Under the pieces are notes generated by a model, which worked only from the letters and a program-made list of their open reading frames with translations, made no database searches and had not been told where the DNA came from. The position numbers and the translations under genes were made by a program. Of a stretch of DNA of 64,000 nucleotides, positions 40 to 52,874 are shown piece by piece (positions within the stretch are counted from its first letter, which is position 1; the number at the start of each line of letters is the position of its first letter). This stretch comes from a virus: positions 30,118 through 94,117 of IMG/VR virus record IMGVR_UViG_3300045988_005108. One strand, written 5' to 3'.

Positions 40-3000
40 TTATTGCTTAAAAAATGGAATACTTTCTTCTGGGTGTAAACCTCTATATATAGTCTTATTC
101 ATAGGAATTAATGGAGACTCAAACCATAATTTAGTTGCTCTTGAATCACCTTTAAACCTACCTGACTGAATAATAGCATCTTCACCTGCAAAAGTTTCAT
201 AGTTCATAGGATTTAGTAGTCCTACCATACCCAAAACACTCTCTACAGTATTAATACCAGCAGCAGGAGATTTCAAGATTTTAAGAGCTTCTCCTACCAT
301 TTGAGGACCTGGAACCTGAGTACCAATTTCAGTATAAAGTCTCCTTGCTTGATATTCAATCATCTTCTGTAACCAAGGTCTATCCTTATTATCATCCCAA
401 TCCATGAGACCTAAGAATGCAGCAATAATTAAGAAGTGACCTACTTCAGTAGCAGCTCTTTTAATATTAGCTTTTTCTGTCTTTGTAAGGTTTTTCCAAT
501 TAGCAGCTATTGCAAATTGACCTTCCTTCAACTCTTTAGCTAATTGCCACATAAATCTTCCTGTAGTATTATAATAACCCTCTGTCCATGCTTGCAAATC
601 ATAGTTATATGTAGCAGACTTGAACCTTCTGTTAAGAGATGGTTTAATCCACTTTCTAAACATAACACCCATTCTACCTATAGCTAATCTCTGCACTGCA
701 CTTCTATCAGCCTTATTATAAATACCGTGCATTCTCTGATTTATAGCAGCAGATTTCCTACTAAATGCTATAATATCATCTCTTGTAAATGCAGACCCAT
801 CTTCCTTAGTATAACCTTGCTTTAACTGTAACTTAGCACCTAACTTCTTGTTGTTCTTATCTATAGGAACTACCTCCATAGCATCCCATAAGGAAACTAT
901 TTTACCATCAGGAGCTTTCATCTTATAAGCATCTGCAAGTGCTAATGAAGTTCTGTTCTGCATCCAATGCTCACCAGCATTATTCATAAGGAACAAGGCA
1001 GATGTACCAAACATTCTACTGAACCAAGTCTTTCTGTCAAAGTTTACCTCTCTAACATCAGTTTCATATTCCTGCATTACATTGAATAACTCATCCCACA
1101 AAGCAAGCTTGCTTGTCTTGACTCTGTTACCTATCTCAGCCAAGTACTCTGGCAATGCTTTACCATAGTTTCTATCAGCTATTAAGGTATTGGATTCATT
1201 ATAGAACTCACCTGCAAAGGACTCAATTCTCATCATAATTTTACCAGTAGTAACATTTGAAATACCACTCAACAAGTTAAGACCTAACATATTAAGAGAT
1301 GTTACTCTATTAACAAAGTTAGCTACCTTTCCTTTATCAATCTTAGTATTACCAAATGTACCTTCATCAGCCATATATCTACCATAGACTTGCATTTCAA
1401 AGAAGTCATTCAGTCTCTGCATGAATCTTGTTTCATCACCAGATTTAGTTAAGGTTGACTCCACCTTTCTACCTACAGACTTAAACTTTTCAACCAATGG
1501 TTTACCACCCCTTGTCTGTATAATCTCCCTTTCTTTCAGCATATCTCTGCCAAGCTCAAGAACATCAATTATTTTATTCATTTCATTGAAGTCATTAGCC
1601 ATAGCTGCATAGGCTGTAAGAGTAGATACTATATCAGTAGATAAGTCATTAGGGCTTTCACCTTCTTTCATTTTGGTATAGTAGATAGGAAGTACTTGCA
1701 CCTCTTTACCTTCAAAATCCTTTACTGTAGCTCTATCTCCAAACTCAGTGTCATCTGTTCTCCTAATGAATTGGTCTTTAACTGCTTCCCATACTTGTGT
1801 ACTACCTGACCTTACACCATCAGAAGCCTTTACTCTTTCAAGTAAGTCTTTTCTGATTTTAACTGCATTAGTTAAGGTAGTGTACTTGTCAGGAAGGTAT
1901 GAATCCAGCTTGGCTTTTATCTCCATAATCCTATTGTAGTATTCTTTTTGGGCAGGGTTTAAGTTCTGATAAGCCTTATTGCCATAGATTGATACTTTAG
2001 GTTGCTTCTTTCCATTGACTACCTCCATATTAGCATCAAACCAAGCCTGTCTCTCTTTTCTGTACTTCTCTGCATTATCTCCTACAGGATTATTACCATA
2101 CTTCTCATTGAGGGACTTGAACATTTCTCTGACTTTCTCCTTGAATAAGCCTTGATTAATCTCAGAGATATAATTACCTGTAAGATTACCTTTACTGTCT
2201 CTTTCAAACATCCAATCAGTATTCTTTATGCCAGCTTGCTCTAACTTAATGGTAGCAGCTTGAAGCTCCTTCATAACATTGATAGTCTCCAACCTTGCAT
2301 TTTCTTTACTCTTCTTGACAGCTTGGTCCATAACTTTCAGCATATAATCTGAAGAGTCTGCCATAGAATCAAGCCACCTGTCAAAGAAAGATATGTCTTT
2401 GTCAGCAACCTTAACCAAGTCTTCAGCAGTCATAGTCTTACCCTTGAACTTACCAAAGGGAACAGTTATACTTTCCCCTACAAAAGGCTTAATAAAATCA
2501 ACAAAGAGAGGCATTGCCACATTGTTATATCTGACAAACAAGTCTCCAAGTAGCGTAGTTGTGTTATCTAACACAACCCTTACCCTTTGACCATATCTAT
2601 TGTCTGCATATCTCTCTTCATCAATAAGAGCCTTTCTAATATCATCAGTAATATGCTTGTAACTATACAAGTAGTTTCTGACATCTCTTAGAACACCAGC
2701 TCTTTCATTAACATTGGTAGCAGGAATATTCTGCAACATAGTAAGTCTATCACTTACCTTAGTTAATTCTTCAAGAGCATTCTCAACAAAAGTATAGATA
2801 CCTTCAATCTCATTGTTATCTGCTAATTCAATATCCAATCTGTCAATAAGTAACCTTTGATTAGCACTAAACTGGCTATTAGGATTTCTCTTTTCATAAA
2901 TCTTCAATCTCTTCAACTCATTCTCAATGATTCCTTGAAGTAACTTTTTATCTCTTGCAACTCTCTCTGAGGTATTATAGAATACCCCACTTGAAGTAAT

Positions 3001-4095
3001 ATTGCTAATGTCAATAACCTCATCCATACTACCATCAAGGATTTGCTGTGCCAAAGAACCAAAGTTCTTATCAGCCTCCTTCAAGGCTCTTTGTATAGGA
3101 CTTGCATTCAGATTCTTGAAAAAATTCTTAACTGCTTGAATTACTCTTTGCAGTAGATTCTTATAAGGAGCAGATGGAATATTCTCACCTTGAAGAAGAT
3201 GCTTTGCAAGTAGTTTACCCGCAGCTTCTTTTGCCAACTTAGCCTCATCACTATGATATAAGGTATCATAGGTGTCATAGTCCTCACCTATAATTTCTCT
3301 CGCCAATCCATTGGAAGATATGTTATTGATAAGTCTATTGATGAGTGGATTATCTCCCATAGCTTCAATGGCAAAGTGTGCAAATTCCTCAGGAAGTGCT
3401 TTTTCACCTTGAATACCATTAGCAAGCCTAATCATTTCAACAAGACCATTTGCTGCATTTCTTGCAACATCAAAGTCAGTTACACCATGAATACCCATTC
3501 TCTTTTCAAGGTCAGTCAAAGCACCTATCCCTATACCATGAGACTCAAGAATACTCCTCAACCTGTTATTAAGGTTTTCATTGTATTCCATCTTATCTGC
3601 ATTAACAGAGTTAAGCCTATTTCTTTTCTCAACCTTTACTCCAATATGGATTTTTCCTGTTTCACTGTCTTGTATCTTGATTACATTAGCCACATAATCA
3701 TCCCTATACTCTGAGTTCTGATTAAAGGCTATAGCCTTCTGTTTCAACTTCTGATAATTCTCATCATTGTTTACCCACAAGGCTGGTCTGTCCATTCCTT
3801 TCTTATAGTACCCTATTTCTCTATTAAGTCTCTCAAGTACTTTAGTCTCTGGAATAACCTTACTGAGATTAGTCTGCTTTAGCAAACTTCTCAATGTAGG
3901 TTCATTGTTTTCATCTAATGTTAATCTTGGATTCCAATCTCTTATAAAAGAGTCAGCTTTTGTAATAAGATATAGTCTTGTAGCTTCACTTCTATTGTTA
4001 GAGGTGAAGGACAGCAAGTCCTTAAATAACTTGCTGTCCACTACCTGACCATTTCTATTCTTTACCTTTGGAATAATTGCACAACTTTTTGCCAT
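40..4095 (-). CDS. Large 1351-aa protein of the virion-RNAP gene block, function unknown (possibly a virion-delivered protein)
   Basis: Uninterrupted 1351-codon ORF 17 nt downstream of the RNAP C-terminal ORF on the same strand; one hydrophobic helix near the C-terminus (VGHFLIIAAFLGLM); no catalytic motif recognised. Confidence 0.35.
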   Translation of the reverse strand: MAKSCAIIPKVKNRNGQVVDSKLFKDLLSFTSNNRSEATRLYLITKADSFIRDWNPRLTLDENNEPTLRSLLKQTNLSKVIPETKVLERLNREIGYYKKGMDRPALWVNNDENYQKLKQKAIAFNQNSEYRDDYVANVIKIQDSETGKIHIGVKVEKRNRLNSVNADKMEYNENLNNRLRSILESHGIGIGALTDLEKRMGIHGVTDFDVARNAANGLVEMIRLANGIQGEKALPEEFAHFAIEAMGDNPLINRLINNISSNGLAREIIGEDYDTYDTLYHSDEAKLAKEAAGKLLAKHLLQGENIPSAPYKNLLQRVIQAVKNFFKNLNASPIQRALKEADKNFGSLAQQILDGSMDEVIDISNITSSGVFYNTSERVARDKKLLQGIIENELKRLKIYEKRNPNSQFSANQRLLIDRLDIELADNNEIEGIYTFVENALEELTKVSDRLTMLQNIPATNVNERAGVLRDVRNYLYSYKHITDDIRKALIDEERYADNRYGQRVRVVLDNTTTLLGDLFVRYNNVAMPLFVDFIKPFVGESITVPFGKFKGKTMTAEDLVKVADKDISFFDRWLDSMADSSDYMLKVMDQAVKKSKENARLETINVMKELQAATIKLEQAGIKNTDWMFERDSKGNLTGNYISEINQGLFKEKVREMFKSLNEKYGNNPVGDNAEKYRKERQAWFDANMEVVNGKKQPKVSIYGNKAYQNLNPAQKEYYNRIMEIKAKLDSYLPDKYTTLTNAVKIRKDLLERVKASDGVRSGSTQVWEAVKDQFIRRTDDTEFGDRATVKDFEGKEVQVLPIYYTKMKEGESPNDLSTDIVSTLTAYAAMANDFNEMNKIIDVLELGRDMLKEREIIQTRGGKPLVEKFKSVGRKVESTLTKSGDETRFMQRLNDFFEMQVYGRYMADEGTFGNTKIDKGKVANFVNRVTSLNMLGLNLLSGISNVTTGKIMMRIESFAGEFYNESNTLIADRNYGKALPEYLAEIGNRVKTSKLALWDELFNVMQEYETDVREVNFDRKTWFSRMFGTSALFLMNNAGEHWMQNRTSLALADAYKMKAPDGKIVSLWDAMEVVPIDKNNKKLGAKLQLKQGYTKEDGSAFTRDDIIAFSRKSAAINQRMHGIYNKADRSAVQRLAIGRMGVMFRKWIKPSLNRRFKSATYNYDLQAWTEGYYNTTGRFMWQLAKELKEGQFAIAANWKNLTKTEKANIKRAATEVGHFLIIAAFLGLMDWDDNKDRPWLQKMIEYQARRLYTEIGTQVPGPQMVGEALKILKSPAAGINTVESVLGMVGLLNPMNYETFAGEDAIIQSGRFKGDSRATKLWFESPLIPMNKTIYRGLHPEESIPFFKQ

Positions 4096-4112: not shown

Positions 4113-7100
4113 TTATAAACTATATAATGTTGGAGCACCACAAATACTATCACCATTCTCATCCTTATACTCTGTATTAGGCTGAATAGTTGTCACATCA
4201 TCAGCCTTAGGAGCATAAGTATCAAGAGGAGTACCATATACCTGTTGGAAGGCATCAGTATCTACTTGTGGAATAGAATCCCAATACTCTTGAGGCATAT
4301 CTTGATAATCAGGCATAGAATCATAATCAACCTCAGCATCTCCAAGGTCAAATCTTGACAATGTATCTGCATAAGGGTCATAATCTTTCCTGTTCTTATC
4401 AATTACAGTTTCCATCTCCTCTACATCCTTGCCATATTCATATTCAATGAAGCTGTTTCTGAAGCCTAATGGTTCAATCCTTTCATAGATTGCAACATTA
4501 GTTTGTTCAGTACCTACAGATGATAACTTGTAATAGACATAGTTTCCTCTGATTCTTCTACCTATATACTTAAAGAAGTCATAAGCAGGACCATCAGGAG
4601 TATCTATCCTTTTCTTGATAACTTTCTTATCTCCAAAGGTAGCATTATCATCAATTACAAATGTAACTTCATCCTTAACTTCATTATCCTCTCCTATGAA
4701 CTGGACAGAGGCTGTATCAGGGATTTCAGGAACCAACTTTCTATTATCCAAGTGATTATAGACATATTGGTCTACAAATTGACTATAATCATCACTTGAT
4801 GACAAGAGAGTTCTCAATGTACTTATGTACTCTGGGATAGCATTTCTCACTGCCACAGGTGCCAAATGGATAAAGGTTGAAGGTCCAAATGCAAAGCCAT
4901 TCCTATAATAGCTGTATCTGAATAAGTTAAGAGCAAGTTTCTGAGCTTCTGGGTTACTCATATACAACAGAGATGCCCAATCTCTCATATATCTTTCTCT
5001 CAAAGTAGGACTTAACTGACCTACATTCTTAAACACTACTGTGTCTACAGGATTACTGTCATTTGCCCTAATTACCTTGAGTCTCTTAATAAATTCAAGG
5101 TCAGCTATATCCTCATTATCTGTAACCACTCTCTTGAAGTACTCAGGGAAATTATTAATGAAGTCCTTTCTCTTATCAGAGGAAGTTACAATAATATCAC
5201 CTACTTCTGAGTCTGGGTTTACAATCAATTCAGAACCAAAGAATCCATTCTTTGACATGATGTAGGCAAGCAAGTCATTATAAATACTATTCATAGTCTT
5301 TACATTCAACTTACCAGTCTTTGTCATGTCTCTAAGGTCATCAATTACAGTTCTGAATGATTCAGTATATTGAGGGAAGTAAGACCCTAACATTTCCTCT
5401 GTTTTCTGTAAGCCAAGAGTGTAGAAAGCCTGTAAGAAGGGAAGAGGAGCAGACAATAGTCTTTCTCTTAGAGTGTCAGTGTCAGGATTGTCTGATAACA
5501 GACCATCAAGTATTACATTGGCATTCTTCAATGGAAACTTGTCATTATTCTCTATCTGGTCTAACAGGTCTTTTACTTTCTGCATCTTTAACTCTGTATC
5601 TGCAATAGTAGGACCAGCAGCACCTCCTTGGGTATCAGACCTTGTAGCTTGTACTAATTGTCCTAAAGCATCAGCAGAGTTCATAATTCTCTTGAACAAA
5701 TATCCAACTGCAACTTGTTTCTGGTAGAACTCAATTTTTCTGAAATCAGAAGTCTGAGACCTGTCAGTAACAGCCTCCTTAGCAAGCATTATATTGTCTG
5801 CAAGCTCTTCAATATAGAAGCTATTATTCTTGTAGTTATCATAAGTCAAGTCACTATTAAGAGCAGCCTTCTCCTTATACTTATCCAGTACTTCATCAAT
5901 GATAGTATCTTTGCCTTTACCTTCTCTACTCTCTCTAAAATAGGTCTGAGTAATCTCTTGAACTATAGGCTGCATCATTAACAAACCTATCTCAATAGGG
6001 TTATAACCTAATCTTGAGAGAAGCATAGAAGCATCAGCAGTGAAAGTATTCTGATTAAGTGCTGCAAGCACAGGGTCTTTAACATTATCCACAGAAGCAG
6101 CCAAGAATCCAGCATTATTCTTTGAGATAAATTCCTTGTCACCATTCATAATATCATGTAAAGATGTAAGTCTCTTTCCATTCAATACAAATGAGCCATT
6201 TTCTTCATCCAAAGCTAACTGAGTATGTTGCATCAAAGCATGATTTGCATTATGGTTGGCATAAATACCAATCAACTTAGCACCAGTCATGTTCTGCTGA
6301 TGTAACATTACCTGAGTTCTTGGTGATAATGGGTCCATCTTGACCTTTGTCTTTTCTGCCAACTTATCAAGAGTATCAAGGTCTAAGTCAAATAGATATG
6401 AAGCAATAGACTTGGGATAAGACTTTCCACCTTTCTGTACAGTCTTATTAAGTTCTACACCTACATCCTTTAATGCTTGAGCCAAGTCACTCTCATAAGA
6501 ATCATTGAGAATGGTCATTATTCTTGCAGACTTCTTCTGATAATCAAAGCCACCTGGGTTAAGAATTTTTGAAGCTGTATCTGCATTAGTCAGAACTCCA
6601 TACATCATATCTATCAGCAAGTTATTTCTTGCTTTAAGACTGTTCTCCTGTGGAGATTTATTGAAGTCATACTTTACCTTGCTTATAATAGGCTTGGCAA
6701 GTCTGTACTTCTCTTTATTCTCCTTGAACCATTCCTTAAAGTCATCAGTATCTGCATTGAGAATATCCTCTGCTAATTGGCTATGAGTGAATTGTGACAA
6801 TACTTGATTGAATAAGCTATTCATTCTTGCATAGTCTTCTCTTGCCTGTCTCATATCATACTTCTTAACTCTGAACTCAGGTAACATGATATACATCTTA
6901 TCCACATCAAAGTCAGAACCTGATAGAGTAGTAATCTCAGCAGGAAGCATAATTGCAGAACCATTCTGTTGAGGAAGGAATCCCTTAATATACAGAGGAG
7001 CCATTGAATATTTATCCTCCGTTGGGACTCTATATCCAATCAACTTTCTCAAATCCTCAGGAAGTTTAGTTACATCAAGCTGGTGAGTATTTGGGTCCAT

Positions 7101-7766
7101 GAGAGGCTCATAGAACTCTCTACTATATGCAGGCATATAACATTCAAGATACTTAATCCTCTTGTTAGCACCTTCACCTTCAAATACTACATGAAGTTCA
7201 TCAGTCAAGCCATAATCAGATACCTGAATTAAAGCTCCACCTCTAATCTTCTGTTTAGTAATTCTACTCTTGATTACACTATTAAGGAGTGTCTGTACTC
7301 TTTGAGATTGCACAGGGTCAAAGAGAGGGATATTGAAGTTGTTGTTCTCATCAAGAGTACAAGCCCTCATCATATCCACACCATATCTTTGATTACCCCT
7401 TATCTCTTCAAGTAAGATTTCCTCTACTTTCTCTGGTTTTTTGAATATCTCATCTACATCAGCAAATGCTTGAAGAATATTCTCAGTATTGATGGCATTA
7501 TACAGGTCAAGCCATTCTTTCTTAGTCATCTTCTTACCATCAACCTCAATGATTGTGTCATCAGAGATGTCAGCAGTAATTAGTTTTCTAATCTGAGTAC
7601 CTACCAACTGAACTGCATCAATAGCATGTTCAGGAGTTGCAGTCTGAATACCATAATCTTCATAAGATACCTTATGTACTACATTAGGATTCTCATTACC
7701 AAATCCAATGCCTGTAGCATCTTTAAGCCTCTGAATTACATCAGCCTCTGTATTTACATCATTCAA
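4113..7766 (-). CDS. Virion-type giant RNA polymerase (crAss-like), C-terminal portion carrying the DxDxD catalytic loop
   Basis: 1217-aa ORF; LSGSDFDVDKMY resembles the DFDID metal-binding loop recalled for crAss-like virion RNAP; no ATG (track start is TTG) and the frame stays open upstream to 7808, as expected for the 3' part of a split gene. Confidence 0.6.
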   Translation of the reverse strand: MNDVNTEADVIQRLKDATGIGFGNENPNVVHKVSYEDYGIQTATPEHAIDAVQLVGTQIRKLITADISDDTIIEVDGKKMTKKEWLDLYNAINTENILQAFADVDEIFKKPEKVEEILLEEIRGNQRYGVDMMRACTLDENNNFNIPLFDPVQSQRVQTLLNSVIKSRITKQKIRGGALIQVSDYGLTDELHVVFEGEGANKRIKYLECYMPAYSREFYEPLMDPNTHQLDVTKLPEDLRKLIGYRVPTEDKYSMAPLYIKGFLPQQNGSAIMLPAEITTLSGSDFDVDKMYIMLPEFRVKKYDMRQAREDYARMNSLFNQVLSQFTHSQLAEDILNADTDDFKEWFKENKEKYRLAKPIISKVKYDFNKSPQENSLKARNNLLIDMMYGVLTNADTASKILNPGGFDYQKKSARIMTILNDSYESDLAQALKDVGVELNKTVQKGGKSYPKSIASYLFDLDLDTLDKLAEKTKVKMDPLSPRTQVMLHQQNMTGAKLIGIYANHNANHALMQHTQLALDEENGSFVLNGKRLTSLHDIMNGDKEFISKNNAGFLAASVDNVKDPVLAALNQNTFTADASMLLSRLGYNPIEIGLLMMQPIVQEITQTYFRESREGKGKDTIIDEVLDKYKEKAALNSDLTYDNYKNNSFYIEELADNIMLAKEAVTDRSQTSDFRKIEFYQKQVAVGYLFKRIMNSADALGQLVQATRSDTQGGAAGPTIADTELKMQKVKDLLDQIENNDKFPLKNANVILDGLLSDNPDTDTLRERLLSAPLPFLQAFYTLGLQKTEEMLGSYFPQYTESFRTVIDDLRDMTKTGKLNVKTMNSIYNDLLAYIMSKNGFFGSELIVNPDSEVGDIIVTSSDKRKDFINNFPEYFKRVVTDNEDIADLEFIKRLKVIRANDSNPVDTVVFKNVGQLSPTLRERYMRDWASLLYMSNPEAQKLALNLFRYSYYRNGFAFGPSTFIHLAPVAVRNAIPEYISTLRTLLSSSDDYSQFVDQYVYNHLDNRKLVPEIPDTASVQFIGEDNEVKDEVTFVIDDNATFGDKKVIKKRIDTPDGPAYDFFKYIGRRIRGNYVYYKLSSVGTEQTNVAIYERIEPLGFRNSFIEYEYGKDVEEMETVIDKNRKDYDPYADTLSRFDLGDAEVDYDSMPDYQDMPQEYWDSIPQVDTDAFQQVYGTPLDTYAPKADDVTTIQPNTEYKDENGDSICGAPTLYSL

Positions 7767-8016
7767 ATCTATTACACCTTGTTTCAGTTTTGTTATCCTA
7801 TAAGCTTTTTATCTCATAGTTCTTACATTTCATTTAATGTAAGCTCGGCGTACATTTTCATCTTTAGCTTTACCTATTAAGATGCAGGACACTCTTGGGT
7901 CTATTATATTTATTCAAGACCTACGCTCTACACTACTAATTAACCTTTCGTAATTTAATTAGTTAGCTCGGTATTAGCATCTCAGCTTTCACCGATTTTG
8001 CCCTGTAATTATATCA
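7767..8016 (-). other. Non-coding stem-rich segment between the endonuclease ORF and the RNAP 3' ORF (possible intron core or leader)
   Basis: 250 nt without ORF, locally GC-richer; minus-strand stems such as CTAACTAATTAA-N11(CGAAAG)-TTAATTAGTAG, GGTCT-N14-AGACC, CTTACATT-N6-AATGTAAG. Confidence 0.3.
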
Positions 8017-8784
8017 TTAATTACTTAATGATACGGCAAACAAATATTTATTATATTTTCTATCTAAGTAAACATGGGCATTATTATAAATAGTATTTAA
8101 GAATTGTATTGCTTTACTGTGAGTAAATTTAGTTTCATAATAGTTGTTGTTACCATATTTAGTTACTAAGTTTTCAATACCAGTATACTTCAAACAATTT
8201 GTAACTATATTTAGAGTTCCTACTATATTAACTCTTGGATATGGTTTAGTACAATTCTTATGTTCATCTATTCCAACACTTCCATCACCATCAAATACTC
8301 CTCTTACAAAAGGAATAACCAATGAAGAATCTTGGAATATACTCATACTTGGGAATTTCAAAATTAAAGATTTTCTTGGAGTGCATCCATAAGATATTAA
8401 CATATCTTTTAAGTGCTTACTTTTATTCATTATACTATATGATGTATATTCTTTGTAATGTTTAATTCTTATTGGATTCTTTGAACTAATAAACTCTTTG
8501 AATTTCTCTAAGTGCTCTCTGTCTATCAATCCAATCTCTAAACTACCATTATCAGAAATACAACCATCAGCATAAATGAAACCTAGCCAATATGCTTTCT
8601 CCTCAGTATCAATATTATCAAATATATGCTCATTGAATTGAGCTTTTGATAGTTTGATATTAAAAGATTTAAGTATATAAGATACTGTAGTATAGTATAT
8701 ACCTAATTCTTCTGCAATTTCCTTAACTCTTTTTCCTTGTAAAGCAAGTTCTTTTACTTTTTCATAATTTACTCTTTTCTTCAT
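8017..8784 (-). CDS. LAGLIDADG homing endonuclease (double-motif) with N-terminal HTH-like region
   Basis: 255 aa; two LAGLIDADG motifs (YWLGFIYADGCI and FVRGVFDGDGSV); sits between the two RNAP ORFs; has its own promoter-like motif. Confidence 0.85.
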   Translation of the reverse strand: MKKRVNYEKVKELALQGKRVKEIAEELGIYYTTVSYILKSFNIKLSKAQFNEHIFDNIDTEEKAYWLGFIYADGCISDNGSLEIGLIDREHLEKFKEFISSKNPIRIKHYKEYTSYSIMNKSKHLKDMLISYGCTPRKSLILKFPSMSIFQDSSLVIPFVRGVFDGDGSVGIDEHKNCTKPYPRVNIVGTLNIVTNCLKYTGIENLVTKYGNNNYYETKFTHSKAIQFLNTIYNNAHVYLDRKYNKYLFAVSLSN

Positions 8785-8806
8785 ATCATTACCTTTATAT
8801 TTGCTA

Positions 8807-8838
8807 CAAAGGTAGTAATAATTTATCTACTTAGCAAG
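8807..8838 (-). promoter_or_regulatory. Bacteroidetes-type promoter (cTTG-N20-TAccTTTG) for the LAGLIDADG ORF
   Basis: Minus strand reads CTTG...TTACTACCTTTGTAGCAAAT, the -7 box ending 22 nt before the ATG at 8784; same motif family as the five other promoters listed. Confidence 0.5.
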
Positions 8839-8854
8839 GATATAAATAAAATAT

Positions 8855-11800
8855 TTATACTTTACCAACCTTAGTAGTAGACTCAAACTGAACTACATCA
8901 ATCTGATTATCCTCCATAAACTTATTTATGGCTTTCAGCTTGCCTGACCTTCCTAAAGGACCAGCAATTAGTTCGTGCATAGCAAGTAATAGGAACTCTG
9001 AGTTCTTATGCTGTACAGGAGTCTTAATTCCAGTATGACCTTCAATGCCACTGTTATTATTGACTTGTGTATAAACATAAGGCTTCTTAGTCTGCCAAAT
9101 GATATTGAAGTCTTTGATATTCCAATCTCCATTCTTGAAGTTGTTATATGCCTGCTCCATATCATCTGTCCACTGACCTGACATACCAAGTATTGCCCTA
9201 TAGGAACTCAAACTTCTATATGCCTGAGCATCTGCTACATTCACATTCTTAAACTTGTAAATGATATTGTCTCTGTCTATCTTGGTCATTTCATTTCTTC
9301 TAACCCTTTCATCAAGTACAGTCTTGATGTCTTCAAGTACAGAAGATATTATCTCATCATCCTTCAAGTAGATAGTTCTTTCCCAATCCCTACCAATTCT
9401 CTCACCTTTATAAGTAGCCTTAGTATTCAATCTAAGAGCAGGAGCATGAACCTCCTTATATCTCTTCTGAAAGTCCTCAAGGTTCTTATAGAAAGCAAGG
9501 TCAGTAGTAGTAAGCTGGATAATTTGTGAAGTAGCTAACTTACTGTTCCAATAGTACTCTCTAAGAGCATCTTTAGCATTGTTCTTAACAAACAGGCTTC
9601 TTGAGATTGACTGAGCATCTTTCAATTCCATCTCACCTCTTGTTGCCCTATCTGTCATCAGATTCTTAATCTGCTCCATCAGGTTATTGGCTTCCCTACT
9701 ATCAAAAGCACTATTATTGTTATAGGCTCTAAGCATTAGTTCCATATTGGTATTCCACAATGAACCTAAAGCCTCTTTAGCCTTAATAAGTGCCTTTGCA
9801 GTTATTGCATTCTGCTTAGACTGACCTTCAAAAGGAAGATACTTGTACTTGCCATTAGGAAGTTCATCAAGCAGTCCTGCCCTTGACCAATCTCTGTAGG
9901 TTTGTTCAAAACCATCTTCCATCATGTCATTAAGAGTAGTTCTTAGAAAGTTTCTGAGTTCAGCACCAGTACCTGTGGATTTAAGTCTGCTTAACCTATC
10001 AATGAATGTTTCTCCATTGTCGTATCTGAGGTTGTTAAGTGCAGGAAGGAACTTAAATTCTGCACCTCCTATACTCTTTATACTACCATCTTTCTTTCTG
10101 ACAATATCATAGTTGGCAATAGGTTCTACATTCTTATCTCCACTCTGATAAGCATCATCCCTTTCTCTAACCAGCATGATTCTGTCATACTCTTGATTAA
10201 CCAAGTCTACTAACTTGTCAAGGATAACATCATCATAGGCTCTTTTCTTACCATTTTCATCAAGTACATCACCTGTTGTGTACTTTCTGAATCTGATAAA
10301 CTCAGCAGAAGGACTATCTGAAAGAATAGGAACATGATACCAAGCATACTTTATACTTGACTTTGCAGAATCAGGGTCTCCCCAATACTCTGTAAGAAGA
10401 GCTAAAGTATAGTCCAAATCATCCCAATTGGTATAGTCTACTTTGTCAGAGTTCAGCACTACTTTATGGTTAAGACCTCTTCTCAATTCATCAGACTCTG
10501 CAAGCTGTCTTAGCCAGTCATTTCTCCAATGACCATCCTTAAAGAACCACTCATAATCCTTGAACTCAGTTTGCATAAACTGTTCAAATCTCTCCTTGTC
10601 ATTCATAACATTCTTGAGATTCTTGATAAGTTTACCTAAATAGTTAGGAGTAACATGAGAATAGTAAGACTTATCATTCTCTCTGACACTACTTTCAATA
10701 GCATCCTCAGTTACCTCTGCCATCATACTTGCAATCATATTGTAAGCAGAGCCAAAAGTATTGATAAGGTCTCCTCTCTTCTCAGTACCATCCTCCCTTG
10801 TCTCAGACTTGACTTCACCTTTCTTAATACCACTGAATATGACATTCAATTGTGGTAAAAGAAGCATAATTGGGTCAGTAAATGTGATACCTGGAGCTGT
10901 CTTTATATCAGTTAATGCAGTCTTTAATACAGAAGGATTAGCATCAATACCTAACATATGAAGTAACTTCATTATGGTATTCCATACATCTTCTCTTTCC
11001 AAGAGTTGAAGTCTGGATTCTGTATCAAGGTTCTGGAACATATTGTTCAATGTCTCAGTCCATTGCAAACCCTTAGCTGCATTATCCTTGTTTATTTCCC
11101 TATTCTTCTCATATACACTATCATCATCAAGCTGTACTCCATTCTCATAGTTATCTCTCCAAGCATCAAGGAGATAATACACACCTTCAGGCTTATTAAT
11201 GGCAATAGTTTCCATTTTGAAAGAACCATCAGGCATCATTCTTTTCTTTTGAATCCAGTAAGGCATAAAGTCCTTTCTGAAGTCTTGATAGAATTGAGAG
11301 AATAAAGTTTCATCACCTTGAAGTAATTCTATTATTTGATTAACCCAAGGTTTAATCTTAGCCACATTTTCCAATAAAGGAATCATGTCATCAGAGTTAA
11401 TCATATTCCTTAACTTGTCAATGAAAGTAGCATGAACATAGTCAGCATCAAGGTATCTTGTGAAACCTAAATCATCTTCTTCATACATACCCTCATAATC
11501 AAGTTTAGGTACTTGTCTGATTACTTTTCTTACAGCTTGTGACAGAGACTCCTGTGAACTTACCTGTCTGAAATTGGTCATCCACCCATCTTTATAAGCC
11601 TCTTCTTGTCTCCAATCCTCTGCTTCATTATCTACCTCACTGTTACCATCAGGGTCATCATCATTGAGGTTTGCATCAGCAGGTGCAATGTAGTTGGGGT
11701 CTATCCTAATACCCTCAGTCATTACAAGCAAAGTACTTGCTTCCTCAGCAAGAGCTTTATAAACACTAGGGTCATCAACTATCTTCTTATATTCCTGATT

Positions 11801-12988
11801 CTTATAAGCAGCTTTCTTCTTGGCAGCTTCCAACTTTTCTTCATCAGAAAATCTTTCAGATTCATCTATTTCTCCAGCTTCAATAAGAGCATTTTCCTCA
11901 GCATTAATCTTATTAAGTTCTTGCTGTATTCTACCTTCTTCTGTATCCTGTACATAAGAATTGAAGATGTTAGCTACTCTCTTGAATATACCAGCAGGAG
12001 TGTACTTCTTTATAGCAGAGAACCTATCCAAGCTATTAAGCTCAGCCTGTAATTCTTCTTTCTCTACACCACTGGCATCATCAATTCTTCTCTTCAAAGA
12101 ATCAGTCATTTCCTGCAAGGCATTATCAACTTCATTACTGAAGAACCTTGCAATAAGGGTTACTCTATCTCTTCTCGTTTTTGGGTCAAAGAGTAAGTCC
12201 ACCTTTTGCTGTTCCTCAACAGAAGTAATCCTTGGAGTATCAAAAGAACTGCTAAGTGTATCTGTAATTTTCTCTTCTGGTCTTGAAAGAAGGCTAATAG
12301 CCTTTTTTATCTGTATGGTATTATACTCCGTACTTCTTCCTTGTTTTAGAACATTATACTCTTTCTCAAAATAATCTTCTAAGGCAGTTCTTTTAACCAT
12401 TAAGGTTTCAGGGTCAGTTTCAACAGCAGTACTATCCATCTTACTATACTTACCAGATTCTACTAAATCTCTAATAGATTCAGGAACAATCTTATTTATA
12501 TTATTCCAATACCTATCATCATTAACATTAGTAACATTACTTCCACTACTATTGAATAAATCCCAAATCTTTCTTGTAGGACTTCCATAATAAATGGCAA
12601 AAGCACTGTTACCTGTAGTAGGACTGGTAAAGTCGATTCTGATTTCTGTTCCATTAGCTCCAGGATACATACTTACTTTAGTAGTTCCCTCACTAAATTT
12701 TTCTTTATCAAAGGAAGTACTAAGTAATTCTTCTCCTTTTTCTGTAAGAAAGCCCTTATCATTACCATTAACATTCACATATTTGCTAATAGACAAAGCA
12801 GTAATTGGGTCTTCCTTTCTTATTTCCTTAATAAAATCATTGAGTTCACTACCTAATGGAATATCCTCACTAGACTTATTATTCTTTTCCTGCCACAGTC
12901 CAACCAAGTTAAGTACTGATTGCTCTGTTTCATTAGGAAACTTCTTAGCTAATTCTCTAATTTCTGGTGTTATAATTAAACAACTCAT
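8855..12988 (-). CDS. Virion-type giant RNA polymerase (crAss-like), N-terminal portion
   Basis: 1377-aa ORF upstream of and co-oriented with the DFDVD-bearing ORF, separated only by the endonuclease cassette; combined about 2594 aa puts the catalytic loop at about 64 percent of the length, similar to what I recall for single-chain crAss-like vRNAPs. Confidence 0.5.
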   Translation of the reverse strand: MSCLIITPEIRELAKKFPNETEQSVLNLVGLWQEKNNKSSEDIPLGSELNDFIKEIRKEDPITALSISKYVNVNGNDKGFLTEKGEELLSTSFDKEKFSEGTTKVSMYPGANGTEIRIDFTSPTTGNSAFAIYYGSPTRKIWDLFNSSGSNVTNVNDDRYWNNINKIVPESIRDLVESGKYSKMDSTAVETDPETLMVKRTALEDYFEKEYNVLKQGRSTEYNTIQIKKAISLLSRPEEKITDTLSSSFDTPRITSVEEQQKVDLLFDPKTRRDRVTLIARFFSNEVDNALQEMTDSLKRRIDDASGVEKEELQAELNSLDRFSAIKKYTPAGIFKRVANIFNSYVQDTEEGRIQQELNKINAEENALIEAGEIDESERFSDEEKLEAAKKKAAYKNQEYKKIVDDPSVYKALAEEASTLLVMTEGIRIDPNYIAPADANLNDDDPDGNSEVDNEAEDWRQEEAYKDGWMTNFRQVSSQESLSQAVRKVIRQVPKLDYEGMYEEDDLGFTRYLDADYVHATFIDKLRNMINSDDMIPLLENVAKIKPWVNQIIELLQGDETLFSQFYQDFRKDFMPYWIQKKRMMPDGSFKMETIAINKPEGVYYLLDAWRDNYENGVQLDDDSVYEKNREINKDNAAKGLQWTETLNNMFQNLDTESRLQLLEREDVWNTIMKLLHMLGIDANPSVLKTALTDIKTAPGITFTDPIMLLLPQLNVIFSGIKKGEVKSETREDGTEKRGDLINTFGSAYNMIASMMAEVTEDAIESSVRENDKSYYSHVTPNYLGKLIKNLKNVMNDKERFEQFMQTEFKDYEWFFKDGHWRNDWLRQLAESDELRRGLNHKVVLNSDKVDYTNWDDLDYTLALLTEYWGDPDSAKSSIKYAWYHVPILSDSPSAEFIRFRKYTTGDVLDENGKKRAYDDVILDKLVDLVNQEYDRIMLVRERDDAYQSGDKNVEPIANYDIVRKKDGSIKSIGGAEFKFLPALNNLRYDNGETFIDRLSRLKSTGTGAELRNFLRTTLNDMMEDGFEQTYRDWSRAGLLDELPNGKYKYLPFEGQSKQNAITAKALIKAKEALGSLWNTNMELMLRAYNNNSAFDSREANNLMEQIKNLMTDRATRGEMELKDAQSISRSLFVKNNAKDALREYYWNSKLATSQIIQLTTTDLAFYKNLEDFQKRYKEVHAPALRLNTKATYKGERIGRDWERTIYLKDDEIISSVLEDIKTVLDERVRRNEMTKIDRDNIIYKFKNVNVADAQAYRSLSSYRAILGMSGQWTDDMEQAYNNFKNGDWNIKDFNIIWQTKKPYVYTQVNNNSGIEGHTGIKTPVQHKNSEFLLLAMHELIAGPLGRSGKLKAINKFMEDNQIDVVQFESTTKVGKV

Positions 12989-13009: not shown

Positions 13010-13041
13010 CAAAGGTAAGGAATTTAATTGTAATATACAAG
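13010..13041 (-). promoter_or_regulatory. Bacteroidetes-type promoter (cTTG-N20-TAccTTTG) for the RNAP gene
   Basis: Minus strand: CTTGTATATTACAATTAAATTCCTTACCTTTGCACAAATAA, the -7 box ending 21 nt before the ATG at 12988. Confidence 0.55.
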
Positions 13042-44186: not shown

Positions 44187-44217
44187 AAAAAAGAAATTAT
44201 TATTAAAATACTTATTG

Positions 44218-44597
44218 TGGAGCATAGGGGACTCGAACCCCTGTCTTACTAATCTTTAATAAAAGAATTACACATGCTTACTACTTTTTAATGTGGTCAG
44301 TTACCCACTGAGCTAACTGAATTTACAGCATTTCCACCACCTTATTTTATTGTCCATAAACAAGGAAAAAGTTGAGTTACCTTCTGCGAGACCACAGCCC
44401 ATTAATGCTCTTAAAGTCGGACCCTCAGCCTTAGTCTTTAATCAGGCTTTGCACCTTTCTGTTTCCAAGTAAGTGCTACTCAGCCTATTTAGGCAGCAAC
44501 TCTATAAGAAGTATTGCCAGTTATTGTTTTGATGTCTTTCCATCAGTCTTTGCATGTTCTCTTACCAAATAATTAGCAATCAAAACCAAAATGCCCC
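44218..44597 (-). ncRNA. ssrA: tmRNA (SsrA-like), tag peptide GNTSYRVAA
   Basis: 5' GGGGCAT pairs with 3' ATGCTCC (G3:U70), canonical T-arm AGGGG-TTCGAGT-CCCCT, no anticodon arm; 5' GGGGCATTTTGGTTTTGATTGC resembles the tmRNA 5' consensus; mini-ORF GGC AAT ACT TCT TAT AGA GTT GCT GCC TAA at 44518-44489 with the stop in a hairpin loop. Confidence 0.8.
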
Positions 44598-45290: not shown

Positions 45291-45529
45291 ATTGTGAGTT
45301 TTAAGAATTTTCTGTTTTTGGATTCATTTCTTATTGAAAGAATGTCCTAACAAAGTCAAATATTGTTTCCTATTGAAACATCATTATTAAAGTCACGTAG
45401 CTTCCTCTTTATATCCCCACATTTGAAGCAGTTGCATTTATTAAGTGGTGATAGCTTACCTATCAGCATCACATTTTGCTTTCTTTAGGTCCCATGCTTA
45501 GTAGAAATAGTGAGCTAAATCCACCATTG

Positions 45530-45603
45530 TATCTCCAGTGAGACTCGAACTCACAACCCACAGCTTAGAAGGCTGTTGCTCTATCCAATTGAGCCATGGA
45601 GAC
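45530..45603 (-). tRNA. tRNA-Arg(TCT)
   Basis: Hand-folded cloverleaf GTCTCCA-TG-GCTC..GAGC-A-ACAGC-CTTCTAA-GCTGT-GGGTT-GTGAG-TTCGAGT-CTCAC-TGGAGAT. Confidence 0.8.
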
Positions 45604-45703
45604 ATGCAAAAGGAAACCTGTATATCACATACCAGTTTCCTATAATAACCATTGATTTACTTACCTAAAAACAATCAAATTACCTTTACAAATAACACCT
45701 TAG

Positions 45704-45775
45704 TACTCCCAACAAGACTCGAACTTGTGTCTACTCTTTAGGAGAGAGTTATTCTATCCACTGAACTATGGGAGC
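45704..45775 (-). tRNA. tRNA-Arg(CCT)
   Basis: Cloverleaf GCTCCCA...ACTCT-CTCCTAA-AGAGT...ACAAG-TTCGAGT-CTTGT-TGGGAGT. Confidence 0.8.
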
Positions 45776-45831
45776 ATTTATCCTAATGTTGCTAAGCATA
45801 AAGGGAGCAGCTAATTCCCACCATTAGGAAA

Positions 45832-45906
45832 GGTAATAGTACTTACCATTATGGTAAGAACCCCAACATTGAAAAAGCTGTGCTCTACTTGAGCTATACT
45901 ATTACC
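45832..45906 (-). tRNA. tRNA-like element, possible degenerate tRNA-Glu(TTC) with a non-canonical T-loop
   Basis: 10-bp acceptor-like helix, D-arm GCTC-AAGTA-GAGC, anticodon loop TTTTCAA, but T-loop is CATAATG instead of TTCRANY. Confidence 0.35.
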
Positions 45907-51084: not shown

Positions 51085-51116
51085 TTTGGTGGTTTCAAAC
51101 ATTTTGCTTACCTTTG
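51085..51116 (+). promoter_or_regulatory. Bacteroidetes-type promoter (TTTG-N20-TAccTTTG) upstream of the tRNA array
   Basis: TTTGGTGGTTTCAAACATTTTGCTTACCTTTGTAG. Confidence 0.55.
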
Positions 51117-51210: not shown

Positions 51211-51283
51211 TGCCCCATAGTATAGTTGGTTATTACACGGGATTTTGGCTCCTGTAACATAAGTTCGAGTCTTATTGGGGTAA
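51211..51283 (+). tRNA. tRNA-Gln(TTG)
   Basis: TGCCCCA...CGGGA-TTTTGGC-TCCTG...ATAAG-TTCGAGT-CTTAT-TGGGGTA. Confidence 0.8.
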
Positions 51284-51299
51284 CAATAGAAAGGTAAAT

Positions 51300-51371
51300 G
51301 CCCTCTTAGTTCAATGGACAGAATAAGAGACTTCTAATCTTTTGATATAGGTTCGATTCCTATAGGGGGTA
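51300..51371 (+). tRNA. tRNA-Arg(TCT)
   Basis: GCCCTCT...AGAGA-CTTCTAA-TCTTT...ATAGG-TTCGATT-CCTAT-AGGGGGT. Confidence 0.8.
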
Positions 51372-51385
51372 CTAAATAAATTAAT

Positions 51386-51748
51386 ATGAAAACATGCAGG
51401 ATATGTAATAGGAATTTAGATGATATACTATTCCCTAAAAATGGAAATGCTTTAAGGAATGTATGTAAAGAGTGCCAAACAAAAAGAGTAAGAGCAAAGC
51501 AACTGGAGTTTGTAAATTGGCTACAATCTTTGAAAACAGAATGTTCTATATGTGGGTATAAAAGATGTAAGGAGGCTTTAGAATGGCATCATACTGGAGG
51601 AGATAAGGAGTTTAATGTAAGTAAATTTGTCAATAGTAATTATCCATCACTAAAGAATAAAGAAAAAGTACTTACTGAGTTAAGTAAGTGTGTTCTAGTA
51701 TGTGCTAACTGCCACAGAGAGATACATAAAAATGTTGGGTTAGAATAG
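51386..51748 (+). CDS. HNH endonuclease inserted in the tRNA array
   Basis: Cys pairs CRIC/CKEC and CSIC; WHHTGGDKEFNV ... CANCHREIH (H-N-H); the last 15 nt overlap the 5' end of tRNA-Glu. Confidence 0.75.
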   Translation: MKTCRICNRNLDDILFPKNGNALRNVCKECQTKRVRAKQLEFVNWLQSLKTECSICGYKRCKEALEWHHTGGDKEFNVSKFVNSNYPSLKNKEKVLTELSKCVLVCANCHREIHKNVGLE

Positions 51749-51806
51749 GTGGCTAGTTCGTGAGATTTTCAATCTCAAGAGATGGGTTCGAGTCCCATAC
51801 CCAATA
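51734..51806 (+). tRNA. tRNA-Glu(TTC)
   Basis: GTTGGGT...TGAGA-TTTTCAA-TCTCA...ATGGG-TTCGAGT-CCCAT-ACCCAAT. Confidence 0.8.
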
Positions 51807-51812
51807 CAATAT

Positions 51813-51884
51813 AGAGCTATCTACTAAGGGATAGGTAACTGCCCTCTCAAGGCAGAAATTTGGGTTCAATTCCCAATAGCTCTA
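51813..51884 (+). tRNA. tRNA-Glu(CTC)
   Basis: AGAGCTA...CTGCC-CTCTCAA-GGCAG...TTGGG-TTCAATT-CCCAA-TAGCTCT. Confidence 0.8.
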
Positions 51885-51890
51885 CAACTT

Positions 51891-51963
51891 AGGGTGTGTA
51901 GCATAGTGGTTAATGTGCCTGACTGTCAATCAGGAGATTGGAGTTCAATTCTCCCACATCCTG
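51891..51963 (+). tRNA. tRNA-Asp(GTC)
   Basis: Anticodon arm CCTGA-CTGTCAA-TCAGG; acceptor helix AGGGTGTG/CACATCCT reads as 8 bp with a 4-bp T-stem GGAG-TTCAATT-CTCC. Confidence 0.7.
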
Positions 51964-52017
51964 CTAATCCACTTTTAATCTACTGAAGTCCTATCCTACA
52001 GAGGTAGGATAGGCAAT

Positions 52018-52101
52018 GGAGAGTAAACCTAAAAGGTTTAGGAACTGTCTGCTAAACAGATTGTACCAACATGGTATGTGTTTCAAGTACACTGCTCTCC
52101 G
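52018..52101 (+). tRNA. tRNA-Ser(GCT), class II
   Basis: GGAGAGT...loop CTGCTAA; long variable arm TACCA-ACA-TGGTA; T-loop TTCAAGT; acceptor 3' GCTCTCC. Confidence 0.75.
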
Positions 52102-52107
52102 CAATAT

Positions 52108-52179
52108 ATGGGTGTAATTCAGAGGTAGAATGCTGGCTTTGGGAGCCAGTTGTCCTTGGTTCAAATCCAAGTACCCATA
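52108..52179 (+). tRNA. tRNA-Pro(TGG)
   Basis: ATGGGTG...CTGGC-TTTGGGA-GCCAG...CTTGG-TTCAAAT-CCAAG-TACCCAT. Confidence 0.8.
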
Positions 52180-52182
52180 CTT

Positions 52183-52256
52183 GGGCTTTGTAGTGTAATC
52201 AGGTTAGCACAAGACATTTGCAATGTTTTAGAGGAGTTCAAATCTCACAAGGTCCA
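52183..52256 (+). tRNA. tRNA-Ala(TGC)
   Basis: GGGCTTT/AAGGTCC acceptor with G3:U70; AGACA-TTTGCAA-TGTTT; weak T-stem. Confidence 0.7.
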
Positions 52257-52362
52257 CACGATGTTTTCATGTTTTCATAATGTTGAGCTTTTGCTTGAAC
52301 CCTCTTTTGGGTAGTTAGAGGTTAAAGAAACTACCTATCTACTCTCTATCTAGAGAGTATTT

Positions 52363-52434
52363 GGGTCTTTAGTTCAAAGGTTAGAACAAGGGGCTGTTAA
52401 CCCTTAGATGTAAGTTCGAGTCTTACAGGTCCCG
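52363..52434 (+). tRNA. tRNA-Asn(GTT)
   Basis: GGGTCTT...AGGGG-CTGTTAA-CCCTT...GTAAG-TTCGAGT-CTTAC-AGGTCCC. Confidence 0.8.
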
Positions 52435-52543
52435 CAAAAACTTTTGCAAGGAGTTTAGTCAAGTAGCTTGCAATACTTGATGCCATCATTTCTGAAAGTT
52501 CTCTGAGTGCAATAAGGAGAAGTAATCAATGATTTGATGTTTT

Positions 52544-52616
52544 AGCAGGTTAGAGAAGTAGTAATCTTGCCCCACTCATAGTGGGGAGACCAGTGGTGCA
52601 AATCCACTACCTGCAA
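52544..52616 (+). tRNA. tRNA-Met/Ile2(CAT), copy 1
   Basis: AGCAGGT...CCCCA-CTCATAG-TGGGG...AGTGG-TGCAAAT-CCACT-ACCTGCA; A1:A72 mismatch. Confidence 0.7.
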
Positions 52617-52625
52617 CTAAGTAAT

Positions 52626-52698
52626 TGGGAAGTAGCTCAATTGGTAGAGCACTGGTCTCCAAAATCAGCGGTTGTGGGTTCAATTCCTACCTTCTCAG
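52626..52698 (+). tRNA. tRNA-Trp(CCA)
   Basis: TGGGAAG-TA-GCTC..GAGC-A-CTGGT-CTCCAAA-ATCAG...GTGGG-TTCAATT-CCTAC-CTTCTCA. Confidence 0.8.
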
Positions 52699-52703
52699 CA
52701 TAT

Positions 52704-52780
52704 TGGGATATATCTCCTCTGTCTGATAAGCAGTTGAAAGAGTAGTTGGTTACAGGTGAGTTCAATTCTCACTATCCCAA
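52704..52780 (+). tRNA. tRNA-like gene, anticodon undetermined (aberrant D/anticodon region)
   Basis: Perfect acceptor TGGGATA/TATCCCA and T-arm GTGAG-TTCAATT-CTCAC, but the 45 nt between do not fold into canonical D and anticodon arms. Confidence 0.4.
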
Positions 52781-52800
52781 CATTAGTCAAGAAGAGTAAA

Positions 52801-52872: not shown

Positions 52873-52874
52873 CT

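Follow-up and report, generated by a model that had tools for sequence, protein, structure and literature searches.

Introduction

Group I introns that carry endonuclease genes are well described in phages, with examples in T4 (td, nrdB and nrdD), in Twort-like phages of Staphylococcus and in Bacillus phages of the SPO1 and Bastillevirinae type, mostly of subgroup IA. Here, we describe a 1079-nt insert in a gp50-type RNA polymerase gene of a crAss-like phage, which is very probably a mobile group I intron with a LAGLIDADG endonuclease gene in the loop of its P1 helix; it lies in a 64,000-nt stretch of IMG/VR virus record IMGVR_UViG_3300045988_005108 (positions 30,118 to 94,117 of the record; hereafter the window, the whole stretch analyzed, numbered from its first letter). 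With the introns of T4, the Twort-like phages and SPO1, the insert shares a conserved site in an essential gene, a U at the end of the upstream exon and a G at its own end, a guide forming P1 and P10, a P3/P7 pseudoknot, a P7.1 element between P7 and P3', a looped-out endonuclease open reading frame (ORF) that overlaps the core, and presence or absence among close relatives. It differs from T4-type introns, whose ORFs are located in P6a or P9.1, in that the ORF occupies the P1 loop and holds the guide in its last codons, and its R and S core elements are GUAGAGCGUA and AAAAUGUACGCC, as opposed to the usual UCAGAGACUA and AAGAUAUAGUC; the Rfam model RF00028 is blind to it.

LAGLIDADG-bearing introns in crAss-like phages, including the transcription block, have already been published. 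Yutin et al. 2021 reported that core genes in the Delta and Zeta groups contain group I introns, and the legend of their Fig. 3 places a LAGLIDADG "intron-encoded endonuclease maturase" within the crAss transcription gene block (PMC7886860). The introns in that study were located by protein domains, with no RNA structure or guide given; the Alpha-Gamma genomes were without such insertions, and the Beta group (crAss001-like Steigviridae) was not highlighted. By comparison, the host in the present case is a cr85_1-like (Kahnovirus-like) phage of the Steigviridae, and the gp50 site is defined to the base. An intron family invisible to Rfam, a guide embedded in an ORF and a variable intron load of gp50 in close relatives add modest interest to the published picture.

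Results

A single RNA polymerase gene with a base-precise insert

The features of the locus are as follows.

12988..8855, minus strand: RNA polymerase ORF 1, 1377 aa, ATG start (ORF list)
8784..8017, minus strand: endonuclease ORF between the polymerase halves, 255 aa; putative LAGLIDADG homing endonuclease gene of the double-motif type, situated in the P1 loop and with a weak helix-turn-helix (HTH)-like match at the N terminus
7766..4113, minus strand: RNA polymerase ORF 2, 1217 aa, TTG start (ORF list)
12988..8864, minus strand: exon 1 (gp50-type virion RNA polymerase), 1375 codons ending in U8864, colinear with gp50 of cr85_1 and crAss001
8863..7785, minus strand: predicted group I intron, 1079 nt, first base A8863, last base G7785, delimited by DNA comparison with the intron-less alleles L001 and L003
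7784..4113, minus strand: exon 2, 1223 codons plus stop, holding DFDVD and the region homologous to phi14:2 gp66

A junction query, composed of the last 197 residues of ORF 1 (minus the final KV) followed by KQGVIDL... of ORF 2, was compared against phage genomes using tblastn. It matched 64 phage records, and in 59 of these a single locus accounts for at least 80% of the query. The match is far above chance because in cr85_1 (Steigviridae, Kahnovirus) one ungapped 389-aa alignment spans the junction at 92.8% identity; identity over the same query is 78.7% in crAss001, and the alignment through the junction is also ungapped for bajarodcaudo virus 1 and crAss001. The gp50 homologues are annotated as single coding sequences in cr85_1 ("putative RNA polymerase", 2401 aa) and crAss001 (gp50, 2412 aa). 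At the level of sequence, these comparisons confirm that the two large ORFs correspond to a single gene, which cr85_1 and crAss001 carry without interruption.

The joined exons comprise 2598 codons with zero internal stops, and the resulting protein is 87.6% identical to its cr85_1 homologue and 67.3% identical to crAss001 gp50 (over 2393 aligned positions). Exon 2 matches the RNA polymerase gp66 of phi14:2 (PDB 6VR4, chain 6VR4_A; E=1.6e-25), and mass spectrometry detected the 276.9-kDa gp50 of crAss001 in virions (PMC10172136); by homology, these two observations justify naming the product of the window gene a "virion RNA polymerase". An earlier sequence-only reading of the window had proposed two halves of one gene of about 2600 aa, 1.09 kb apart and separated by a LAGLIDADG ORF, with DFDVD in the second half (residue 1666 of the joined protein), and alignment to uninterrupted relatives, which that reading had called for, bore this out, placing the insertion at 8863..7785, with one gene kept in the relatives examined.

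The boundaries of the insert were read from DNA (here and below, ^ marks the insertion point or splice site). The intron-less alleles L001 and L003 (L003 being bajarodcaudo virus 1, PQ006092) read ...AAGGTTGG(G/T)^AAACAAGGTGT..., or over a longer stretch ...ACTAAGGTTGG(G/T)^AAACAAGGTGT...; the window reads ...AAGGTTGGT^AAAGTAT... at the 5' boundary (longer stretch, ...ACTAAGGTTGGT^AAAGTATAA...) and ...AAAACTG^AAACAAGGTGT... at the 3' boundary. A 3-nt AAA repeat at both ends of the insert leaves the boundary formally ambiguous, and it was set at U8864/G7785 because this is the sole placement that gives both an exon-terminal U and an insert-terminal G. The junction TTKVG^KQGVIDL that the sequence-only reading had chosen by group I rules falls exactly there, where the uninterrupted relatives are colinear. 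After removal of the insert, the reading frame is continuous and colinear with the intron-less homologues. The site lies within a 15-aa block, FESTTKVGKQGVIDL, identical in the window, cr85_1 and crAss001, around which the three proteins are otherwise only 67-88% identical. The same insert occupies the same site in L023 and L024, two IMG/VR contigs ~94% identical to the window.

Within the insert, the endonuclease ORF is flanked by 79 non-coding nt on the 5' side (8863..8785) and 232 on the 3' side (8016..7785), close to the 70 and 250 nt of the sequence-only reading. ORF 1 stops at a UAA (8857..8855) two codons into the insert. As that reading had noted, ORF 2 starts without an ATG: its frame extends 14 codons upstream of the TTG, up to 7808, and reads KAYRITKLKQGVID, and the earliest in-frame ATG, at 7529, is 94 codons past the preceding stop.

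A widespread RNA family with a covarying core

A blastn search with the insert matched 141 phage records, with 67-85% DNA identity over the 3' tail (intron positions ~820-1079) in phage sequences. The tail matches come from crAss-like, Clostridioides, Clostridium, Bacillus, Staphylococcus, Arcanobacterium and Leptolyngbya phages, and most of the family members that were fetched sit between the two halves of a split gene, as listed below; members also occur in genes of cr6_1, cr7_1, cr118_1 and cr128_1.

Split genes in crAss-like phages: ATPase (cr6_1), helicase (cr118_1), major capsid protein (cr128_1, bajarodcaudo virus 1)
Split genes in other phages: RecD-like helicase (Bacillus PJN02), DNA polymerase PolA (Leptolyngbya JY46), TerL (Staphylococcus, Arcanobacterium), tail and tape-measure genes (C. 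difficile phages)

The tail is part of an RNA family found, across phages of at least five host groups, where split genes are interrupted. Within the 64-kb window, neither blastn nor the covariance model described below found a second copy. Two ORF-less, unannotated copies lie ~250 nt apart in C. difficile phage pCD1602_4 (L006 972..1248 and 1501..1763), in what is, by homology to phiCDIF1296T, the tape-measure region, and three or more copies occur within major capsid protein genes of crAss-like phages (L010 and L017).

Fifteen full-length cores were aligned (alignment A1) and 65 base pairs were scored in a proposed structure comprising P2, P3, P4, P5, P6, P6a, P7, P7.1, P8, P9 and P9.1, with a P3 x P7 pseudoknot. 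The elements of the window core, all on the minus strand, are the following.

8033..8012, minus strand: P2 hairpin, UAUCAUUAA GUAA UUAAUGAUA, with a GNRA-type loop; includes the endonuclease stop codon
8005..8000 / 7890..7885, minus strand: P3, enclosing P4, P5, P6, P6a and P7.1
7995..7991 / 7972..7968, minus strand: P4, with a compensatory change between the window and L023/L024
7987..7985 / 7978..7976, minus strand: P5, scored in A1
7967..7965 / 7934..7932, minus strand: P6, scored in A1
7962..7955 / 7943..7936, minus strand: P6a, covarying in A1
7926..7922 (GCGUA) / 7852..7848 (UACGC), minus strand: P7, forming the P3/P7 pseudoknot
7921..7917 / 7902..7898, minus strand: P7.1, GGUCU/AGACC
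7884..7879 / 7864..7859, minus strand: P8, scored in A1
7843..7836 / 7829..7822, minus strand: P9, with compensatory changes between the window and L023/L024
7819..7813 / 7804..7798, minus strand: P9.1, with compensatory changes between the window and L023/L024
7843..7785, minus strand: element containing the conserved 3' end GAUAACAAAACUG, the last base of which is the terminal G7785 (A1)

Standard pairs fill 94.5% of the cells in A1, compared with 33-44% when the partners are slid by 1-3 columns. Both sides changed in 48 of the 65 pairs (shuffle mean 32.2, with 0 of 500 shuffles reaching 48; slid controls, 16-23), and the covariation score is 0.636 vs 0.08-0.15 in the slid controls. P7.1, P2 and P6a vary at nearly every pair with pairing kept; all 9 pairs of P2 changed on both sides within the family, as did all 5 of P7.1, which is 100% paired. 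The same holds at short range: of 19 core positions that differ between the window and the ~94%-identical L023 and L024, 12 make up six compensatory pairs (7995/7968 in P4; 7839/7826 and 7837/7828 in P9; 7818/7799, 7817/7800 and 7816/7801 in P9.1), and one further difference turns G.U into G-C at 7815/7802 in P9.1. The KAYRITKL "peptide" that precedes exon 2 is the conserved 3' end of the RNA (the 3' strand of P9.1 and GAUAACAAAACUG), and the same ITKL reading precedes exon 2 of unrelated genes.

Covariance models, another check that the sequence-only reading had proposed, gave a divided answer. A scan of window positions 7000-9600 against Rfam at E<=10 produced no group I or group II match, only chance-level snoRNA and riboswitch hits. 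A covariance model built from 14 homologues with the window left out (R1) matched the 64-kb window once, at 7784..8009(-), the alignment covering the whole model and scoring 225.1 bits (E=6e-58); no non-standard pair is flagged in the window core, and the nucleotides invariant in the family (alignment including the window) are all present. RF00028 likewise misses 12 other members of the family, all clear members in split genes, and because of this the Rfam null result was not taken as evidence against an intron. A study of the Bastillevirinae reports that phage introns are mostly IA-like and that Rfam or GISSD models often match them only in part or miss them (PMC11878797).

The two models meet in another intron of the same gene, L023 2371-2598, which is matched by both R1 (100.8 bits) and RF00028 (48.5 bits, E=1.9e-11, full length). 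Through this intron, P3, P7 (GACUA/UAGUC) and P8 of Rfam coincide with the proposed P3, P7 (GCGUA/UACGC) and P8, and P7.1 appears as 39 extra nt that RF00028 lacks, placed after P7 and ahead of the 3' strand of P3. In the Michel-Westhof scheme, extra sequence at this point marks subgroup IA, to which phage introns usually belong, and by this analogy the window intron may be placed as IA-like.

The guide lies in the last codons of the endonuclease gene

Immediately 5' of P2, every family member has a short conserved stretch, (U)UUGCC(G). In ten members the 5' splice site was fixed from the reading frames of the exons; every one of the ten pairs the G of this stretch with the U that closes the exon and the bases beside that G with the exon and the first intron bases, and every one has a G as its last intron base. 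The guide covaries with the exon: GGU is matched by GCC, GCU by GGC, GCGAU by GUCGC and GAGGU by GCCUC. In the window, the elements concerned and the pairings in six members are as follows.

8044..8034, minus strand: internal guide, UUUGUUUGCCG (UUUGUUU[G]CCG), its position directly 5' of P2 conserved in A1
8867..8861, minus strand: 5' strand of P1, exon UGGU (8867..8864) and intron AAA (8863..8861)
Window gp50: exon UGGU, intron AAA, guide UUUGCCG
cr118_1 helicase: exon UGGU, intron AAUA, guide UAUUGCCG
Leptolyngbya JY46 PolA: exon GCGAU, intron AAA, guide UUUGUCGC
C. difficile phage pCD1602_4: exon GCU, intron AA, guide UUGGC
Staphylococcus F1 TerL: exon GAGGU, intron A, guide UGCCUC
MT835539: exon CGGU, intron AGA, guide UCUGCCG

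P1 of the window has 7 bp (U8867-G8034, G8866-C8035, G8865-C8036, U8864-G8037, A8863-U8038, A8862-U8039 and A8861-U8040), its guide bases being 8040..8034 (UUUGCCG), and P10, also of 7 bp, joins AAACAAG of the 3' exon (7784..7778) to UUUGUUU (8044..8038). In translation, the guide falls within the C-terminal codons of the ORF (...L F A V S L S N stop), whose stop codon is in P2. As the guide lies inside the 3' end of the ORF and pairs with both exons, the endonuclease gene is therefore in the P1 loop. Members without an ORF have the guide G 8-10 nt from the 5' splice site; where an ORF is present, the interval grows to 753-883 nt (826 nt here). The sequence-only reading had found no convincing P1 guide, because the guide lies outside the 5' 79 nt, 826 nt downstream. 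A candidate within those 79 nt, UUGCUAA at ~8838..8832, was considered early on and dropped in favor of the conserved, exon-covarying guide just 5' of P2 in every member. Six of the ten splice sites are GGU^AA(A/G), four of these being the Gly-Lys codons of Walker A motifs, and the gp50 site, GUU GGU^AAA CAA, fits the same guide.

The endonuclease gene and its candidate promoter

The 255-aa ORF matches Pfam LAGLIDADG_3 with 28 bits (cut-off 22.5); HTH families match residues 12-42 more weakly, under their cut-offs. The ORF contains two LAGLIDADG motifs, LGFIYADG and RGVFDGDGS, and its homologues with 34-41% identity in cr6_1, cr116_1 and Bacillus and Staphylococcus phages are annotated as intron or mobile-intron endonucleases; comparison with solved structures gave only spurious weak matches. 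The ORF is uninterrupted in the window, L023 and L024, and in L024 one Asp is lost from the second motif (FDGDGS to FGDGS). In the 337-nt cr118_1 helicase intron (L007 1401..1500), the P1 loop keeps a C-terminal remnant of a LAGLIDADG ORF that reads ...LDRKLEKYKEYCR, the corresponding end of the window ORF being ...LDRKYNKYLFAVS; this suggests that the endonuclease gene was lost there and the guide at its 3' end retained.

The sequence-only reading had assigned the endonuclease gene a promoter of its own of the form TAccTTTG, a proposal that survives in part.

8814..8807, minus strand: candidate Bacteroidetes-type -7 element TACCTTTG, 22 nt upstream of the endonuclease ATG

The octamer TACCTTTG is enriched in the window (10 found vs 3.2 expected, with 0 of 100 shuffles reaching 10) and lies 21-22 nt upstream of the first ATG, with similar flanks, at gp50 (13017..13010), the endonuclease gene and a gene near 61110. 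Counting against a promoter, the general motif TAnnTTTG is not enriched (84 found vs 75 expected), and the assignment is weakened by resting on one 8-mer. On balance, an internal promoter for the endonuclease gene is plausible, with moderate support. An extended motif, (C/A)(T/C)TACCTTTG(C/T)A(C/G), was also seen upstream of gene starts at 13010..13017(-), 8807..8814(-), 61089..61096(+) and 51109..51116(+), with an ATG 21-22 nt downstream in three cases, and is a candidate phage promoter element. For the T4 endonuclease I-TevI, a start-masking hairpin has been described. A hairpin that could mask the ribosome-binding site here (UACCUUU/AAAGGUA, 8814..8808 / 8796..8790) was set aside as weak, as the change of G8792 to A in L023 and L024 breaks a C-G pair.

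Further introns in the same gene and other features of the window

Exon 2 of this gene is broken by two additional group I introns in L023 (minus strand of the locus, 1312..2251 and 2372..3273), a contig that matches the window at ~94-97% identity wherever the two align. Their insertion points correspond to 6905/6906 and 7025/7027 of the window, and one of them is the L023 2371-2598 intron matched by both models. The two introns encode LAGLIDADG_2 and HNH_3 endonucleases and give three RF00028 matches, of 52.4, 48.4 and 36.9 bits, with 52.4 above the gathering score. About 108 extra in-frame nt are also present in L023 near window 7717-7761. In bajarodcaudo virus 1, a rodent-gut phage, the annotation shows the gp50 homologue as two "hypothetical proteins" with an "endonuclease" between them at another site (L003 7491..8386); RF00028 matches on both flanks (47 and 32.3 bits) and the LAGLIDADG_2 domain of the splitting ORF identify this interruption as an unannotated intron. 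The RF00028-type introns of this gene (L023 2136-2281, 1323-1460 and 2408-2651; L003 7500-7589 and 8193-8380) share with the window intron the host gene and the logic of mobile introns, with LAGLIDADG_2 or HNH_3 endonuclease genes. They differ from it in their insertion sites and in a canonical core recognized by Rfam; among them, only L023 2371-2598 scores with R1, at 100.8 bits vs 212-225 bits for the intron studied here.

Exon 1 contains a ~175-aa extra segment (residues ~65-239; window ~12795..12270, minus strand) that is missing in gp50 of cr85_1 and crAss001 and whose DNA cannot be aligned with contig L024, 94% identical elsewhere. A Pfam scan of the segment gave no match, and an intein was ruled out, given that there is also no Cys/Ser start and no His-Asn end; the segment looks like a hypervariable inserted domain. 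Elsewhere in the window, a tmRNA at 44217..44597 (-) (RF00023, 69.8 bits; ARAGORN tag peptide GNTSYRVAA*) adjoins tRNA genes, of which the 64-kb window has 26 Rfam matches at the gathering score, mostly in two + strand clusters; tRNA regions are listed at 45529..45903 (-) and 51211..55681 (+).

Discussion

Under the proposed mechanism, the gene would be transcribed as one pre-mRNA in which the guide UUUGUUUGCCG forms P1 with UGGU at the end of exon 1 (with a U8864-G8037 wobble) and P10 with AAACAAG at the beginning of exon 2, the core from P3 to P9.1 folding around the P3/P7 pseudoknot. By standard group I chemistry, free guanosine would attack after U8864, and the 3'-OH of the exon would then attack after the terminal G7785. 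Ligation would yield ...ACU AAG GUU GGU^AAA CAA GGU... (at the DNA level, ...AAGGUUGGU^AAACAAGGU...) and one 2598-aa protein (...FESTTKVG^KQGVIDL...). The endonuclease, probably expressed from its own TACCTTTG promoter, would cut intron-less gp50 alleles in co-infection, the cr85_1-type target being ...ACTAAGGTTGGGAAACAAGGTGT... / ACCACTAAGGTTGGGAAACAAGGTGTCATAG, and repair would copy the intron in, that is, homing.

Several points weigh against this account. Splicing is deduced from sequence comparison; the failure of RF00028 on the window intron even at E<=10 makes the link to group I transitive and structural; and the IA-like placement depends on P7.1 and the Michel-Westhof scheme. That P1 must form over 826 nt weakens the case, and ribosomes on the endonuclease gene would traverse the guide and P2 and might thereby impede splicing. 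Moreover, this is probably a metagenome assembly, so that this exact genome may not be viable.

The sequence-only reading had held a free-standing endonuclease cassette to be equally likely, without splicing, the two chains (1377 aa, and ~1217 aa from the TTG at 7766) assembling after translation. Both halves are indeed open ORFs, and the upstream one reads only two codons of the insert before its stop; the Rfam scan of the window is without a group I match; and the transcription proteins of crAss-like phages are naturally spread over gp47, gp49 and gp50 (PMC10172136). We nevertheless consider two chains highly improbable: the insert holds a complete ribozyme core, supported by covariation and maintained in the lineage by six compensatory pairs, together with a guide matched to both exons; the second half lacks an ATG for 94 codons, and its 14 "extra" codons (KAYRITKL...) are the conserved RNA 3' end GAUAACAAAACUG, with the ITKL reading found in unrelated genes; the insertion is base-precise and inside an invariant 15-aa block; and the relatives examined keep one gene. 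The ribozyme core, the guide and the uninterrupted relatives decide for a group I intron over a free-standing gene.

An intron that is decayed or defective in splicing, in a dead or assembly-chimeric genome with no functional full-length polymerase, would accord with the metagenomic origin, and the loss of a motif-2 residue in L024 (FDGDGS to FGDGS) hints at the onset of decay of the endonuclease gene. This too is highly improbable, as the window core has no non-standard pair and all the family-invariant nucleotides, the same site is occupied in three independent contigs ~6% diverged, with the helices kept by compensatory changes, and the endonuclease ORF is intact in all three. It is also conceivable, with a probability we regard as close to negligible, that splicing is accompanied by the use of unspliced mRNA to make a stand-alone 1377-aa N-terminal protein, with the efficiency of splicing setting the ratio of products. 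Translation of unspliced RNA would indeed stop at the UAA at 8857..8855, two codons past the splice site, but such a by-product is expected for any intron in a coding gene, nothing points to a functional truncated product, and the intron-less relatives make the full-length protein only. A mobile group I intron, spliced to restore a single polymerase, remains by far the best account of the insert.

More tentatively, and doubtful as a whole, the family could be a distinct, uncurated branch of phage group I introns, invisible to RF00028, in phages of Bacteroidota, Bacillota, Actinomycetota and Cyanobacteria, for which four further propositions would hold jointly. With the guide in the last ORF codons, endonuclease translation and P1/P2 formation would be mutually exclusive; the near-constant guide UUGCC would steer the family to GGU^AA(A/G) sites, commonly Gly-Lys codons in Walker A motifs; at the gp50 site, a sequence of the GGU^AA(A/G) type would have been captured ectopically; and splicing efficiency would gate the full-length polymerase available for packaging.

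For annotation, the finding means that two "RNA polymerase" ORFs and an "endonuclease" should become one intron-containing gene. Left unjoined, the polymerase, whose phi14:2 homologue drives early transcription, resembles two subunits, and family or structure work on crAss-like polymerases would use truncated chains. Because the standard Rfam model overlooks a widespread intron family, scans based on RF00028 will under-count phage introns. Relatives 88-95% identical in the region range in intron load from zero to at least three mobile introns, all tolerated by the gene of a packaged, presumably essential polymerase, and this makes the introns handy markers for following co-infection and gene flow in gut crAss-like phages.

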